Shown piece by piece: positions 3,234-8,319 of a stretch of DNA of 64,000 nt. The DNA comes from an uncultured Clostridium sp. (GTDB lineage: Bacteria; Bacillota; Clostridia; Lachnospirales; Lachnospiraceae): the NCBI GenBank assembly GCA_900540335.1, contig UQFC01000001.1:14178-78177 (forward strand), in the 5' to 3' direction. The position numbers and the translations under genes are program-made. The notes beneath the pieces were generated by a model. It was not told where the DNA came from. It was given only the letters and a program-made list of their open reading frames with translations, and made no database searches. Every line of letters begins with the position of its first letter. The stretch's first letter is position 1.

Positions 3234-4124
3234 TTAAAACAGCGGAACGACAGCACCCTCATAGGTTGTCTCCATATATTCCTTTACCGTATCACTGGTA
3301 AGAGCCTCCATCAGAGCCTTTGTGCCTTCCTCGTTTTCCTTGCCTTCCTGAACAGCTACAACGTTTCCATAGGTAACTGCCGCCTCAGAATCAGAAGACT
3401 CTACAGCCAGAGCATCTGTCACCTTCATGCCTGCTTCAATAGCGTAGTTTCCGTTAATAACGGCAATATCCACATCCGGAAGAGAACGGGGAATCTGCGC
3501 TGCCTCAACCTCAAACAGCTCCAGATTTTTCGGATTCTCGACAATATCCATCTTGGTTGCCTTCAGGCCAACACCTTCTTTTAACTTAATCAGGCCCTGT
3601 GCCTCCAGAAGCAGCAGTGCGCGCGCTTCATTGGTTGCATCATTGGGAACTGCAACCTTTGCTCCGTCTGCCAGTTCCTCCAGAGAAGCTGTCTTTCCTG
3701 CGTAAATACCAAAGGGCTCATAATGAACAGCGCCTGCGCTTACCAGCTTGGTTCCTCTTTCTGCATTAAACTGCTCCAGGTATGGGAAGTGCTGGAAATA
3801 GTTTGCATCCAGATCGCCGGTATCCAGAGCTAGGTTCGGCTGTACATAGTCCGTATACTCTACAATCTTTAAGCTGTAGCCCTTCTCCTCCAGAACAGGG
3901 CGTGCTGCCTCCAGAATCTCTGCATGAGGTGCCGGGCTTGCGCCTACCACCAGCTCCTTCAGCTCTGCAGGCTCCTTGCTCTCCGCTGCCTCAGTTTCCT
4001 TGCTCTCTTCTGCAGCTGTCTGTGCCTGTGTCGGCGCTGCAGTCTCCTCAGTTTTGCCGCCGCATGCAGTTAATGCTGCCGCTGCCAGAAATGCTGCCGT
4101 GATTACACTAATTCTTCTCTTCAT
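3234..4124 (-). CDS. metQ: Methionine ABC transporter substrate-binding lipoprotein (NlpA/MetQ family)
   Basis: It has a lipoprotein signal peptide (LTACGG) followed by a MetQ/NlpA fold. I placed the start at the ATG at 4124, which has a GAGGAGG RBS. The ORF-track start at 4142 lies upstream of the RBS. Confidence 0.85.
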   Translation of the reverse strand: MKRRISVITAAFLAAAALTACGGKTEETAAPTQAQTAAEESKETEAAESKEPAELKELVVGASPAPHAEILEAARPVLEEKGYSLKIVEYTDYVQPNLALDTGDLDANYFQHFPYLEQFNAERGTKLVSAGAVHYEPFGIYAGKTASLEELADGAKVAVPNDATNEARALLLLEAQGLIKLKEGVGLKATKMDIVENPKNLELFEVEAAQIPRSLPDVDIAVINGNYAIEAGMKVTDALAVESSDSEAAVTYGNVVAVQEGKENEEGTKALMEALTSDTVKEYMETTYEGAVVPLF

Positions 4125-4258
4125 AATTCTTCTCCTCCTCATGGATAATAATGAATAGATGCCGGGCAGTTTTCGCCCTGATTTATAAGGCCCTTTCGGC
4201 CGACAGTCTGAGTATTTTCTCCGGCTGCTAAATCCGTTTGCTTTGAAAATCCAGTCTG

Positions 4259-4924
4259 TTACCGGATTCTCTTATCACTGACTCTTGCCAGCTTCATGCC
4301 AATCTCCTGAATAATCTGGACAATAATCACCAGAATCGCCACTGTCAGAAACATCATATCTGACTCATACCGGTAATAGCCGTAGTTAATGGCAATACCG
4401 CCCAGTCCGCCGCCGCCTACCGCTCCGGCAATTGCGGAATATCCCAGAATCGTGGTAGTGGAAATCGCTGCTCCCACCAATAACGAAGGCTTTGACTCCG
4501 GAAGAAGCACCTTCCATATAATCTGAAAGGTACTGGCGCCCATGGACTTGGCCGCTTCAATCACTCCGGCATCAATCTCCTTGAAGGAAGACTCAACCAT
4601 TCTGGCAATGTAAGGAGCTGCAGATGCCACCAGAGGCGGAACCACTGCCTTCCATCCCAGACTGGTTCCTACCAGCTTTCTGGTCAGGGGAATCATCATA
4701 ATCAGCAAAATCAGAAAGGGAATGGAGCGAAGCAGGTTAATTGCAGTGCCCAGAATCTTCTGAAGCAGGGGAATCGGGTGAATTCCCTCCTTGTCTGTCA
4801 CCACAAGAATAATACCTAAGGGAATTCCGATTACATAGGACAGCACCGTGGAAATCAGCACCATACACAGGGTTTCTCCGATTCCATTTTGAATCAGCTC
4901 CATAATCTGCGGACTAAAGGTCAT
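4259..4924 (-). CDS. metI: Methionine ABC transporter permease
   Basis: The 221-aa ORF has 5 transmembrane segments and an ABC type I permease EAA-like region. It lies between metN and metQ. Confidence 0.88.
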   Translation of the reverse strand: MTFSPQIMELIQNGIGETLCMVLISTVLSYVIGIPLGIILVVTDKEGIHPIPLLQKILGTAINLLRSIPFLILLIMMIPLTRKLVGTSLGWKAVVPPLVASAAPYIARMVESSFKEIDAGVIEAAKSMGASTFQIIWKVLLPESKPSLLVGAAISTTTILGYSAIAGAVGGGGLGGIAINYGYYRYESDMMFLTVAILVIIVQIIQEIGMKLARVSDKRIR

Positions 4925-5942
4925 TTTCTCTTACCTCCTCAAACGGAATTTTAACAGATTTCAGATAGTGAAGGGCTCTTGCAGCATCCGCTTCGTCCTC
5001 CGGAAGCTGAACAATCATCTGACCCATCGCTTTTCCTCCTACATCTCTGGTTGACGCATACATAATATTCACCGGCACCTTGCTGGCAAGAATCATGTTG
5101 GCTAATACCGGCTCCATGGATTCCCGTCCGTCAAAGATAATTCTGATTTTCCGGGAATGGCTGATTTTCACATTGGTAATTGCATCTCCCAGAATCAGCT
5201 GGCGTCCGATTTTCGACTTGGGCTCTGAGAAAATCTCGGCAACCTTACCCACCTCAGCAATGTGGCTCTTGTCAATGATTGCCACCCGGTCACAAATGGC
5301 CTCAATCACCGCCATCTCATGAGTAATCACAATCACGGTAATTCCCAGCTCCCTGTTAATCTGTTTGAGCAGCTGCAGAATGGACTTGGTTGTATTGGGA
5401 TCCAGGGCGCTGGTTGCCTCATCACAGAGAAGCACCTTGGGATTTGTTGCAATGGCTCTTGCAATCGCCACTCTCTGCTTCTGACCGCCGGACAGCTGCG
5501 CCGGATAAGCTCCGGCCCGTTCCTCCAGTCCTACCAGCTTTAACAGCTCCATGGCCCTGCTTTTTGCCTCTGCCTTGGTATAGGAATGGTTCTTTGCAAT
5601 CTCCATAGGAAAACAGACATTTTTCAAAACGGTTCTCTGGGACAGCAGATTAAACTGCTGAAAAATCATTCCCATGGACTGTCTTGCCATTCTCCGGCCC
5701 GCCTCACTCATGGCTGCCAGATTCTCTCCCTCAAACAGTACCTGTCCCGATGTGGGAACCTCCAGCATATTGATGCATCTTACCAGCGTACTTTTTCCTG
5801 CGCCGGAAAGGCCGATAATTCCAAAAATCTCACCTCTGTAAATATCCAGATTAATGTCATTAAGCGCCACAACCGGGCCGTTGGCCGTCTTAAATTCCTT
5901 TCCCATTCCCTTTAACTGGATAATCGTCTCTTCGTTTGCCAT
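4914..5942 (-). CDS. metN: Methionine ABC transporter ATP-binding protein with C-terminal NIL domain
   Basis: It has Walker A (GLSGAGKST), the LSGGQKQR signature, Walker B, and a C-terminal NIL/ACT-like domain. I placed the start at the ATG at 5940-5942, which follows a GGAGGA RBS. The ORF-track N-terminal extension crosses the RBS. Confidence 0.9.
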   Translation of the reverse strand: MANEETIIQLKGMGKEFKTANGPVVALNDINLDIYRGEIFGIIGLSGAGKSTLVRCINMLEVPTSGQVLFEGENLAAMSEAGRRMARQSMGMIFQQFNLLSQRTVLKNVCFPMEIAKNHSYTKAEAKSRAMELLKLVGLEERAGAYPAQLSGGQKQRVAIARAIATNPKVLLCDEATSALDPNTTKSILQLLKQINRELGITVIVITHEMAVIEAICDRVAIIDKSHIAEVGKVAEIFSEPKSKIGRQLILGDAITNVKISHSRKIRIIFDGRESMEPVLANMILASKVPVNIMYASTRDVGGKAMGQMIVQLPEDEADAARALHYLKSVKIPFEEVRENDL

Positions 5943-6058
5943 ATTTCCTCCTTCCAATTCCCGTACCGCGGCCGCGTCAGCAGCCTCCTTCCTGTGATGC
6001 GCGGTGCACATCCCCGCAGAGCGTTTTTATTTCATAGGACGCAATTTCCTATGAAATC

Positions 6059-6087
6059 AAAAACCGCAGGTCTGTAAAGACCTGCGG
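6059..6087 (-). terminator. Intrinsic terminator/attenuator in the metNIQ leader
   Basis: On the minus strand, CCGCAGGTC-TTTACA-GACCTGCGG is a 9-bp GC-rich stem followed by TTTTT. It lies roughly 55 nt after the leader peptide stop and roughly 115 nt before the metN ATG. Confidence 0.7.
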
Positions 6088-6141
6088 CTGTCACTCCGGT
6101 TTCCCGGTACTATCCCTATTGTCTCTCAGCATCCATGCAAA

Positions 6142-6240
6142 TCATATCCTGTTTTTTGAATACGCAAACATACGGCACATGTCCATCATCATGCCGCACA
6201 TCATTTCCATATTCATCTGCATGGTTGTAATCTGAGTCAT
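6142..6240 (-). CDS. Methionine-rich leader peptide (32 codons, 11 Met): MTQITTMQMNMEMMCGMMMDMCRMFAYSKNRI
   Basis: The ORF is too small for the 60-aa ORF track. Its ATG is at 6238-6240, 9 nt after an AGAGGAAA RBS. It sits between a consensus sigma-A promoter and an intrinsic terminator, directly upstream of metN. Confidence 0.6.
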   Translation of the reverse strand: MTQITTMQMNMEMMCGMMMDMCRMFAYSKNRI

Positions 6241-6296
6241 AACAGTTTCCTCTCTTCTTCCCTGACATGGTAAAACAGAAGCTCTCTATGTGGCGT

Positions 6297-6325
6297 ATTG
6301 TACGTCACATAGCCTTATTTGTCAA
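6297..6325 (-). promoter_or_regulatory. Sigma-A type promoter for the met leader and metNIQ (TTGACA, 17 nt spacer, TACAAT)
   Basis: On the minus strand, TTGACA is at 6320-6325 and TACAAT at 6297-6302, with exactly 17 nt between them. Both hexamers are perfect consensus. Confidence 0.65.
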
Positions 6326-6344
6326 GCAATAATTCACAATTTCC

Positions 6345-6415
6345 TTGACTTTTCCTCCATTTGCTGTATAATACTCCCTTAGTTAGTTCTATTTAGAACT
6401 GTTCAAAATAGAACT
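6345..6415 (+). promoter_or_regulatory. marR promoter (TTGACT, 16 nt spacer, TATAAT) with a palindromic/direct-repeat operator
   Basis: TTGACT is at 6345-6350 and TATAAT at 6367-6372. Immediately downstream, TAGTTCTATTTAGAACTGTTCAAAATAGAACTA contains three TAGAACT/AGTTCTA half-sites. This is a classic MarR autoregulatory arrangement. Confidence 0.55.
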
Positions 6416-6460
6416 ATTTTACAGAGTGTTTTCTGTAAAACCATTTGAGGAGGTATTTCC

Positions 6461-6913
6461 ATGTCATCCTGGATAACTGAACTTCTGGAGACTACCCGCC
6501 GTACCAATAAGCTTCACGAATCCTTTCTGCGGGAGCTCTGCGAAACCTACCATCTGACCATGGCAGAGGTGTCCATTATCTGCTTCCTGAAAAACAATCC
6601 GCAGCTGGATACAGCAGCAGACATTGTGGAATATAAAATGCTGGCCAAAAGCCATGTTTCCCAGGCCGTAGAATCTCTGATTCAAAAAGCCATGCTGGAA
6701 AGAGCTGCCGATCCCCGCGACCGGCGCAGACAGCATTTATCCCTGCTGCCCGCCAGTGCCCCTGTAACAGATGCCATTGAGACCGTTCAGGAGCTGTTTT
6801 TTCATGAAATTTTTACCGGTTTTACAGAGGAGGAACAGAATCAGTTCTTTGCATTCAACCAGAGAATCATTGACAACACAAAAAATATGCTGGAAAGAAG
6901 GAAACATCTATGA
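6461..6913 (+). CDS. MarR-family transcriptional regulator
   Basis: The 150-aa ORF has a winged-helix MarR domain. It overlaps the start of the downstream MATE gene by 4 nt, indicating one operon. Confidence 0.8.
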   Translation: MSSWITELLETTRRTNKLHESFLRELCETYHLTMAEVSIICFLKNNPQLDTAADIVEYKMLAKSHVSQAVESLIQKAMLERAADPRDRRRQHLSLLPASAPVTDAIETVQELFFHEIFTGFTEEEQNQFFAFNQRIIDNTKNMLERRKHL

Positions 6914-8319
6914 AAGATAACAAAGATTTTCTTGGAAGAGAACCAATCGGCAAGCTGCTGTTGACCCTGTCTCTTCCAACCATTGCCGCTCAGATTATCA
7001 ATATGTTCTACAATATTGTAGACCGGATTTACATTGGCCATATTCCGGAGACAGGAGCCATGGCCTTAACCGGCGTCGGCGTCTGTATGCCATTAATCAT
7101 GATTGTGTCCGCCTTTGCCATGCTGGTAGGAAACGGCGGAGCGCCCCGGGCCTCTATTTTTATGGGAAAAGGCAAATATGAAGATGCTGAAAAAATTCTG
7201 AATAACTGCTTTACGCTTCAGCTGATTATTTCCGCAGTTCTCACGGGAATTCTGCTTTTATTCAACCGGACGCTGCTGATGGCCTTCGGCGCCAGTGAAA
7301 ACACCATTGAATACAGCGTCAGCTACATGAATATCTATGCCCTTGGCACCATTTTTGTACAGCTTACCCTTGGCATGAATGCATTTATTACTGCCCAGGG
7401 CTTTGCAAAAACAGGAATGCTTTCCGTACTGATCGGTGCAGTAACCAATATTATCCTGGATCCCATCTTTATCTTTGGCATGAACATGGGAGTCCGCGGA
7501 GGAGCGCTGGCCACAGTTCTTTCCCAGGCTCTCTCCTGCATCTGGGTTCTTGCCTTTTTGATGGGCAAAAAAACGCAGCTGCGTCTGCGTCTCAACCGGC
7601 TCGGCCTCCAGAAAGCCATTATCCTTCCCTGCGTTGGACTCGGCACCTCCACCTTCATTATGCAGAGCAGCGAAGGCATTATTTCTGTATGCTTTAACTC
7701 CTCTCTTCTGAAATACGGCGGAGATATTGCCGTAGGCGCCATGACGATTCTTACCAGTGTCATGATGTTTGCCATGCTGCCTCTTCAGGGTCTGGGACAG
7801 GGCGCACAGCCGATTATCAGCTATAACTACGGCGCCAGCAATCCGGTTCGGGTCAAAAAAGCCTTCTGGCTTCTTTTGAAGGTCAGCATGGCCTATGCAA
7901 CCTTGCTCTGGCTGTTTATCATGGTATTCCCGAAAGGATTTGCCGGTCTGTTCACCACCGATGCCGCTCTTCTTGACTTTACCAAACGGGCGCTCCGGAT
8001 TTACCTGGCCTGCCTCTTCCTGTTCGGAATTCAGATTTCCTGCCAGATGGCCTTCAACTCCATCGGCTATGCCAAAGAGTCCATCATGGTGGCAGTTATG
8101 AGAAAATTCGTTCTCCTGATTCCGCTGATTTACATCATTCCCCGTTTCTGGACAGGAGATCAGGTTTCTGCCGTATACATGGCAGAGCCGGTTGCCGATT
8201 TCTTTGCTGTTTCCTTTACCGTCTTTCTGTTCCGGAAACAGTTTAAAAAGGCGCTGGAGAGCATCCGCGGGAAGAAGGACGTCTTAAACGCTTCAGGTAC
8301 TCCTTCTGTTCCGGCTTAA
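6910..8319 (+). CDS. MATE-family multidrug efflux transporter
   Basis: The 469-aa ORF has 12 transmembrane segments and a MATE N-terminus (LSLPTIAAQIINMFYNIVDRIYIGH). Confidence 0.85.
   Translation: MKDNKDFLGREPIGKLLLTLSLPTIAAQIINMFYNIVDRIYIGHIPETGAMALTGVGVCMPLIMIVSAFAMLVGNGGAPRASIFMGKGKYEDAEKILNNCFTLQLIISAVLTGILLLFNRTLLMAFGASENTIEYSVSYMNIYALGTIFVQLTLGMNAFITAQGFAKTGMLSVLIGAVTNIILDPIFIFGMNMGVRGGALATVLSQALSCIWVLAFLMGKKTQLRLRLNRLGLQKAIILPCVGLGTSTFIMQSSEGIISVCFNSSLLKYGGDIAVGAMTILTSVMMFAMLPLQGLGQGAQPIISYNYGASNPVRVKKAFWLLLKVSMAYATLLWLFIMVFPKGFAGLFTTDAALLDFTKRALRIYLACLFLFGIQISCQMAFNSIGYAKESIMVAVMRKFVLLIPLIYIIPRFWTGDQVSAVYMAEPVADFFAVSFTVFLFRKQFKKALESIRGKKDVLNASGTPSVPA

Follow-up and report, generated by a model that had tools for sequence, protein, structure and literature searches.

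The element considered here is a candidate transcription attenuator upstream of metNIQ, the operon of a methionine ATP-binding cassette (ABC) importer, in a stretch of contig UQFC01000001.1 from an uncultured Clostridium sp. of the Lachnospiraceae (64,000 nucleotides (nt) in full, hereafter the window). On the minus strand, a promoter is followed by a ribosome-binding site (RBS), a short open reading frame (ORF) rich in methionine codons, an intrinsic terminator and then metN (Table 1). An earlier note, made from the letters alone, had described this order of elements, and all of them are present, with about 116 nt between the terminator T-run and the metN ATG at 5942, which is served by a GGAGG RBS. 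The downstream genes match the NCBIfam models TIGR02314 (MetN), NF008049 (MetI) and NF008285 (MetQ).

Methionine accounts for 11 of the 32 leader codons (positions 1, 7, 9, 11, 13, 14, 17, 18, 19, 21 and 24), and the leader spans roughly 230 nt from its predicted transcription start to the end of the terminator. The terminator stem (6089-6062) has 12 pairs, seven of them G-C, followed by TTTTT, and the hairpin has a folding energy of -21 kcal/mol. When all frames of the window were scanned, the leader was the sole site with at least 7 ATG per 20 stop-free codons (maximum 10), and the runner-up, with 6 ATG per 20 codons, fell within a coding gene. A 350-nt segment containing the leader folds at -123 kcal/mol (z = -7.4 against shuffles). 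The earlier description of the locus is thus accurate, and the arrangement is far from chance.

Table 1. Features of the metNIQ leader and operon, with positions in the 64-kb window
Feature	Position	Strand	Description	Support
Sigma-A-type promoter	6297..6325	-	-35 TTGACA 6325-6320, 17-nt spacer, -10 TACAAT 6302-6297	11/12 consensus matches
Shine-Dalgarno of leader ORF	6249..6254	-	GAGAGG, 8 nt 5' of the ATG at 6240	
Leader ORF	6142..6240	-	32 codons and UGA (6144-6142), peptide MTQITTMQMNMEMMCGMMMDMCRMFAYSKNRI	
Segment 1	6209..6227	-	5' strand of helix P1, CAaCCAUGCAGAUgaAUAU; codons 5-11, including Met codons 7, 9 and 11	RNAalifold consensus
P2 hairpin	6166..6206	-	Within the ORF, codons 12-25; core GCGGCAUG...AUGUGCCGU	Folding, RNAalifold, compensatory changes
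Segment 2	6129..6148	-	3' strand of P1, GAUAUGAUUUGCAUGGAUGC, with the UGA stop inside; in relatives also the antiterminator 5' strand	
Window-specific antiterminator strand	6114..6130	-	GCUGAGAGACAAUAGGG; partner 6088-6071 (GCCGCAGGUCUUUACAGA)	RNAduplex -12.8 kcal/mol
Small variable hairpin	6096..6107	-	CCGG-GAAA-CCGG, between segment 2 and the terminator	Differently sequenced hairpin there in other loci
Intrinsic terminator	6059..6089	-	5' arm 6089-6078, loop 6077-6074, 3' arm 6073-6062, T-run to 6059	
metNIQ operon (methionine ABC importer)	3234..5942	-	metN 4914-5942, metI 4259-4924, metQ 3234-4142	NCBIfam

Conservation of the leader in Lachnospiraceae

A MetN scan with one genome per species yielded 80 related Lachnospiraceae metN loci with 71-98% MetN identity, from taxa that include Lachnoclostridium sp. 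Marseille-P6806 (98%), Ventrimonas, Lacrimispora, Enterocloster, Hungatella and Clostridium fessum. Taking the most Met-rich small ORF at most 700 nt upstream of metN, the same Met-rich ORF was found in 78 of these 80 loci, for example as MNQFRAMQMNMDMMNSMYMMCCVSAWAKN and MYNSKSMMMNMYMMNGMEMCRMFMCIKIEWF. Across the family it is 27-49 codons long, has about 31% Met codons and follows the consensus M-Q-M-N-M-x-M-M-x-G-M...M-C-R/C. A terminator was detected in 74 of the 78 related leaders, 30-95 nt past the stop codon, and each of the 75 related loci examined has, at the corresponding position, a perfect promoter of the form TTGACA-17-TAnAAT or TATCTT.

There are two exceptions. At locus L041, metN comes straight after another gene and has no leader. 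At locus L077, in a Lacrimispora metagenome-assembled genome (2860-2980), a deletion has taken the ORF and segment 1, while segment 2 (UUGUAUGGAUUGCGAU) and the terminator have been kept; for this natural deletion variant, the attenuator model set out below predicts constitutive antitermination.

The exact peptide of the window occurs, unnamed, on 335 public contigs. Its family comprises 177 clusters at 90% identity in a profile search and 59 representatives at 50% identity in an exhaustive hidden Markov model (HMM) search. All members are of the same type, lack a Pfam domain and are annotated at best as 'hypothetical protein'; searches for remote homologues, both word-indexed and by exhaustive HMM, returned this same family only. 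Wherever the genomic context was read, the window included, the peptide precedes genes with ABC_tran+NIL, BPD_transp_1 and Lipoprotein_9 domains, that is, metNIQ. The upstream neighbour varies by locus, being a MacB-type gene, a peptidase M20 gene or, in the window, a MarR-family gene. The comparative evidence indicates that the leader is a real, conserved and lineage-wide cis-regulatory element.

Translation signals and codon-level constraint

RNA and codon counts were made on an alignment of 77 leaders. Of these, 75 have an RBS-like motif at most 20 nt from the leader start (median spacing, 7 nt), and 76 begin with ATG. Between the start and the first conserved Met there are exactly five codons, which vary but never include an in-frame stop, and insertions and deletions within the ORF come in multiples of three (gaps of 3 or 6 nt). 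ATG triplets are concentrated in the reading frame, with 756 in frame against 11 and 46 in the other two, and Met and Cys make up 31% and 9% of all codons, respectively. Codons 18-20, in the unpaired loop of P2, vary in number and sequence and are mostly Met, which suggests that the AUG enrichment is not simply a by-product of base pairing.

The non-Met codons show a different kind of conservation. Several residues recur in most leaders (Cys22 in 77/77, Gly16 in 65/77 and Asn10 in 65/77), and a single codon is used for Gln8 (CAG in 60/60), Asn10 (AAU in 65/65), Asn15 (AAC in 41/41) and, with one exception, Gly16 (GGC in 64/65). Non-synonymous variants do occur at these positions (E/M, D/H/K, C/S/D and S/D). 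The pattern indicates that selection on the non-Met codons is at the nucleotide level rather than the amino-acid level, as predicted for a classical attenuator, in which the peptide itself is irrelevant. Constraint of this kind speaks against an arrest peptide, and against a functional micropeptide as well.

A further conserved stretch is the A-rich tract AAAAAAC between P2 and segment 2 (codons ~27-30, window 6151-6157), whose nucleotides are kept in most clades and which may be a spacer or a pause signal.

Alternative pairings across the family

Consensus folding of the 77-sequence alignment with RNAalifold recovered P1, P2 and the terminator. In P1, CCAUGCAGAUG (codons 6-9) pairs with AUC-UGUAUGG straight after the stop codon, while P2 forms within the ORF between AUGAUGAACGGCAUG and AUGUGCCGUAUGUU. 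In this OFF structure, 91.3% of alignment cells form standard pairs, compared with 25-50% for slid controls, and the share is 86% for P1, 96.6% for P2 (helix 4) and 93.6% for the terminator (helix 5). Double-sided changes affect 13 pairs, including four in P2 (for example, GGC/CGU to AGC/UGU) and eight in the terminator.

When the same folding was limited to nascent RNA that starts at segment 2 and ends with the terminator loop, an alternative was obtained in which the segment just past the stop codon (UGUAUG-GAU-UGUG) pairs with the 5' arm and loop of the terminator (CGCA-GUCU-GUGCA). This antiterminator has 88.4% of its cells paired, against 23-53% for slid controls. According to duplex calculations, the terminator loop co-varies with segment 2: UGCAUGG is accompanied by CCAUGCA or CUAUGCA, UGUAUGG by CUGUGCA or CCGUGCA, and UGUGUGG by CUCAUACA. 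This tracking would explain why the terminator loop is conserved at all.

The mean duplex energies are -12.8 kcal/mol for P1 (z = -4.1), -14.0 kcal/mol for the antiterminator (z = -2.4) and -20.4 kcal/mol for the terminator. This order is the usual hierarchy, and the antiterminator would have to win kinetically, through a competition that we infer. In most leaders, 1-16 nt separate the stop codon from the segment 2 core downstream, and in the window the codon falls inside segment 2; at either position, a terminating ribosome would occlude segment 2. Switching was assessed by constrained folding, in which a leader scored as captured if six or more nucleotides of its terminator 5' arm were paired with the segment 2 zone. 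Capture was seen in 16% of leaders with no ribosome, 62% with the A site on Met7, 53% with the A site on Met9 and 36% with the ribosome at the stop codon. In the window's own leader, the numbers of captured nucleotides were 0, 6, 6 and 0, respectively.

Searches for riboswitches and T-boxes

Control by an S-box or a T-box is the norm for methionine transporters in Firmicutes (PMC3766115), and the lack of a recognisable S-box in this leader was part of the earlier proposal. The cmscan comparison with Rfam 15 agreed with it: nothing in the window matched at the gathering score, and at E<=10 the region 5900-6480 gave no credible match, with no S-adenosylmethionine (SAM) class, T-box or leader family among the results. 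The best low-score match, Atu_C9 (E = 0.003), was merely the terminator hairpin read on the opposite strand. The same scan of 20 related loci returned no riboswitch, T-box or leader-family match. As far as covariance models can tell, the S-box, the other SAM classes, the T-box and the Rfam leader families are therefore excluded. A resemblance of AAUAGGGAUAGUACCGG (6120-6103) to the T-box core is superficial, as this region varies between relatives.

A methionine attenuator model

At the family level, every feature by which the leader-peptide attenuator class is defined in sequence was found in these leaders. The leader is probably a ribosome-mediated transcription attenuator by which metNIQ expression is tied to how much charged elongator Met-tRNA is available. 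The same core reading had been offered in the earlier note, and it is borne out by a small ORF, RBS and terminator that are conserved in 78 of the 80 metN loci, by mutually exclusive pairings of the classical 1:2, 2:3 and 3:4 type, and by the lack of any riboswitch match in the window and the 20 related loci.

Under this model, a ribosome supplied with ample methionine would reach the stop codon in or next to segment 2 and either mask that segment or, on release, let segments 1 and 2 pair. With segment 2 masked or held in P1, the terminator would form and transcription would end before metN. When charged Met-tRNA(Met) is scarce, the ribosome would instead stall on the early Met codons (Met7-Met11) and cover segment 1, leaving segment 2 free to pair with the nascent 5' arm of the terminator, so that RNA polymerase reads through and metNIQ is expressed. 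If the leader is not translated at all, P1, P2 and the terminator would all form, giving a default OFF state. P2 is probably a pause or synchronisation hairpin for RNA polymerase. As a speculation, Met codons 13-24 might make the switch more sensitive, for example if ribosomes queue or P2 opens. The anatomy, its conservation and the alternative pairings can be read directly from the alignments, and it is from these that we infer a response to tRNA charging and a pausing role for P2.

Several observations weigh against this model. At the family level, double (compensatory) changes are nearly absent from the antiterminator pairs of the fixed alignment, and a switch based on minimum free energy is seen in just ~55-60% of leaders. 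In the Hungatella clade, the register of P1 is displaced to codons 4-7. P2, and not segment 1, holds more than half of the Met codons (13-24). The self-complementarity of CAUG lets AUG-rich RNA form helices easily, and the AUG conservation is therefore partly structural. Starvation for methionine should also lower initiator fMet-tRNA, which could reduce translation of the leader and lead to super-attenuation; any Met attenuator must cope with this double effect on elongator and initiator tRNA.

The window's own copy adds to these difficulties. Its P1 duplex has an energy of -14.8 kcal/mol (z = -6.2) for short stretches and of -16.6 kcal/mol over longer ones. Its 2:3 pairing has diverged, and the canonical segment 2 fits the loop UUUACA poorly. 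The best antiterminator, CUGAGAGAC with GUCUUUACAG, reaches -12.8 kcal/mol, or -11.1 kcal/mol over a shorter segment 2 stretch (z = -0.5 against shuffles), so that some -11 to -13 kcal/mol would compete with a terminator of -21 kcal/mol. With the antiterminator of the window this weak, it is the family and not this copy that carries the case for an attenuator. The window-specific pairing is also found in locus L001, and locus L002 has changed both strands and kept the pairing (GAUAGA:UCUAUU).

Another antiterminator, UGUGCGGC with GCCGCA in the terminator 5' arm, had been put forward earlier for the window. It does exist there as a pairing of 6 bp; in the alignment, however, it is not conserved, since most relatives have AAC-GGC and GUCGCA, which form only 4 bp without covariation. 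It was thus rejected as the family mechanism, and one may speculate that it contributes in the window's clade after late stalls.

Alternative explanations

One variant of the attenuator idea concerns the invariant Cys22 and the M-C-R-M-F motif, with its counterpart CMCRRMCAF in a predicted Streptomyces metNIQ leader. These could form a nascent-peptide or codon module that senses sulfur amino-acid status more broadly, either through both Met and Cys charging or through a sulfur metabolite in the exit tunnel, and which would have arisen convergently in two phyla before the same transporter. This has only a slim chance of being correct.

It is very unlikely that the terminator is mainly under the control of a trans-acting factor, such as an RNA-binding protein or a DNA-binding repressor, with the small ORF having a minor role or none in sensing. 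A conserved inverted repeat, GGCGTA-N3-TACGCC, over the -10 element does suggest an additional regulator. However, an operator at the promoter would leave the Met-codon ORF, the architecture of segment 1, segment 2 and terminator, and the placement of the stop codon unexplained, and the Enterocloster and Hungatella clades lack the palindrome yet keep the leader. Such a factor would more likely act on top of the attenuator than in its place.

The strong structure of the leader (z = -7.4), the covariation that backs P1, P2 and the terminator, and the prevalence of riboswitch or T-box control among Firmicutes Met transporter operons (PMC3766115) would all fit a new RNA-only element or riboswitch for SAM, Met or a related metabolite, in which the AUG-rich 'ORF' is incidental to the fold. 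Such an element would not be expected to confine its ATGs to one frame (756 vs 11 and 46), to hold the distance from RBS to start fixed, to avoid in-frame stops or to accept indels only in threes, and its P2 loop would have little reason to stay Met-rich while varying in length and sequence. The conserved unpaired core that is typical of a ligand pocket is also lacking, as is any Rfam match, and this explanation too is very unlikely.

A ligand-sensing arrest peptide in the style of TnaC or SpeFL, in which binding of free methionine or SAM in the exit tunnel would let the nascent peptide, chiefly its conserved ...M-C-R-M-F... end, halt the ribosome, is less likely still. The high conservation of Cys22, Gly16 and Asn10 could be read in this way, and a predicted Streptomyces metNIQ leader ends in CMCRRMCAF, which is similar to MCRMF(V/A)C here. 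Yet Gln8, Asn10 and Asn15 lack synonymous variants and tolerate non-synonymous ones, which points, if indirectly, to conservation of the nucleotides rather than of an arrest motif. The codons that are conserved coincide precisely with the paired ones of P1 and P2 and show compensatory changes. The C-terminal part of the peptide varies in length and sequence. Furthermore, given the geometry of the stop codon and segment 2, an arrest triggered by methionine would turn the importer ON in times of plenty, which is the wrong logic.

Least likely of all is a functional Met/Cys-rich micropeptide (for metal binding, as a methionine reserve or as a MetNIQ modulator) with a terminator behind it that is either ordinary or leaky. 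In its favour, conserved copies of the peptide are widespread, with 177 clusters (90% identity) and 59 representatives (50% identity), and MxM motifs bind Cu(I) in other proteins. Against it, selection acts on the nucleotides of the ORF rather than its amino acids, the C-terminus is variable and in some copies reads through into segment 2, the ORF shares its conservation with the terminator and with the mutually exclusive pairings, and no partner genes recur besides metNIQ.

Relation to known regulatory systems

The Lachnospiraceae leader most resembles the classical attenuators of Proteobacteria (trpL, hisL, leuL, pheL, thrL and ilvL), which likewise combine a short translated ORF rich in codons linked to the operon, segments that pair as 1:2, 2:3 and 3:4, an intrinsic terminator, a stop codon at segment 2 and termination by default if the leader is untranslated. 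It differs from them in its predicted signal, methionine, in its Firmicute host and in its target, an importer rather than a biosynthetic operon. Its codons are also dispersed (~9-12 Met over 18 codons) instead of forming one tight run, with more than half of them in P2. In terms of sequence or covariance models, it has no similarity to the Rfam leader families. The proposal concerns a variant of a textbook mechanism, and not a new principle.

Parallels can also be drawn with the polycysteine leaderless small ORFs of mycobacteria, which reportedly act as Cys-responsive attenuators by a mechanism that is said not to be a canonical intrinsic-terminator switch. In both systems, ribosome stalling on a short upstream ORF rich in sulfur amino-acid codons would control the downstream operon; they differ in amino acid, in phylum and in the leaderless translation of the mycobacterial ORFs. 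The Cys codons that accompany the Met codons here (9% of the ORF) may be merely structural.

S-box (SAM-I) and Met T-box leaders similarly occupy the 5' leader of Met transporter operons, decide between a terminator and an antiterminator, and serve to induce uptake when sulfur amino acids are scarce. The proposed sensor is what distinguishes the Lachnospiraceae leader, being a ribosome that reads Met codons and not an aptamer bound by SAM or a T-box bound by uncharged tRNA.

One precedent is the 'metL' ORF of Streptomyces lividans TK24 (MSTTSDRTPATEATTTPGARCMCRRMCAF), which lies immediately upstream of metNIQ and has been predicted to be a Met-dependent attenuator (Front Microbiol 2021, PMC8079986). 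This actinobacterial ORF is leaderless, has only three internal Met codons in 29 and, according to its authors, is missing a typical Rho-independent terminator; the prediction was made in a single genome without comparative or experimental support (PMC8079986). Its C-terminal CMCRRMCAF resembles MCRMF(V/A)C of the Lachnospiraceae leaders, although the shared MCR(R)M motif is short. An exhaustive HMM search starting from the Lachnospiraceae family found no metL-like peptides, bearing in mind that such tiny ORFs are rarely present in protein databases. Homology between the two is unsupported, and the likeness may stem from AUG/UGC-rich sequence that forms hairpins, and may be due to convergence, chance or some constraint common to both.

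Full-text literature searches found no Met-codon attenuator described in Firmicutes and no experimentally characterised Met attenuator, with Streptomyces metL as the only related item. The suggestion that such control had not been described for Firmicutes met operons holds to that extent; because a Met-dependent metNIQ leader has already been predicted in S. lividans (PMC8079986), the idea of a Met attenuator is not entirely unprecedented.

If the attenuator model is correct, the leader would represent a fourth, mechanistically different route in the methionine regulons of Firmicutes, beside the S-box, the Met T-box and a few transcription factors. It would also be widespread, as the family spans Enterocloster, Hungatella, Lacrimispora, Ventrimonas and their relatives, which are abundant Lachnospiraceae of the human gut. 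The signal would be Met-tRNA charging rather than SAM, and methionine uptake in the gut would then respond to, for example, inhibition of methionyl-tRNA synthetase or translation demand. Hundreds of 'hypothetical protein' calls of 29-41 amino acids could become leader peptide annotations, and Rfam could gain a new cis-regulatory family.

Promoter and a possible second layer of control

The leader promoter is itself well conserved. In all 75 loci, the -35 element TTGACA is perfect and the spacer is 17 nt long; it usually lies within CTTGACAAA, ~30-115 nt upstream of the leader ATG. Such strictness is unusual in an intergenic region that has different upstream neighbours at the loci where these were examined.

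Centred on the leader -10 box of the window is the inverted repeat CTATGTGaCGTA-CAA-TACGcCACATAG, with 12-nt arms (6286-6312). The core of the palindrome, GCGTA-N3-TACGC, occurs exactly, and once each, in 32 of 89 fetched loci (L007-L022, L042-L059, L068-L070, L079 and L081-L084), and in every locus compared with the promoter table the match falls at the leader promoter. Within the window, the core is found at this site only, with one mismatch. From its position and recurrence, the palindrome may be an operator for some repressor, which would add a second layer of control.

Divergent from the leader are genes for a MarR-family regulator (6461-6913, plus strand) and a MATE efflux transporter (6910-8319, plus strand), with a near-consensus promoter of their own (TTGACT-16-TATAAT, 6345-6372) that stands back-to-back with the leader promoter. 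The MarR neighbour is not conserved where upstream genes were read (L081-L089) and is probably unrelated.

Other features of the locus

A second Met-rich site, at ~21616 of the window, was dismissed, as it sits within an ordinary coding region. An antisense reading of the leader was likewise rejected: the opposite strand has a His-rich frame (HVHHHAAHHFHIHLH) that lacks both an RBS and, from the previous stop onwards, any ATG, GTG or TTG start. Nothing remarkable was found among the other ORFs that overlap the leader.

An in-frame ATG at 6011 (minus strand) would lengthen metN by 23 codons to an ORF of 365 amino acids (extension 5943-6011). The extension is GC-rich and has two GGAAGGAGG motifs; the ATG at 5942 suits the MetN model and the RBS better. 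Most loci that are more distant lack the ~100-nt insert between the terminator and metN and have shorter gaps, while the gap in L001 is similarly long. Directly 3' of the terminator T-run, the window has a second hairpin, AUUUCAUAGGA-AAUUGCG-UCCUAUGAAAU (6029-6057, minus strand), and similar ones are found in L001, L012, L015, L021, L034 and L073. Stems of the UCAUAGG...CCUAUGA type past the T-run recur in several clades, with differing loops.

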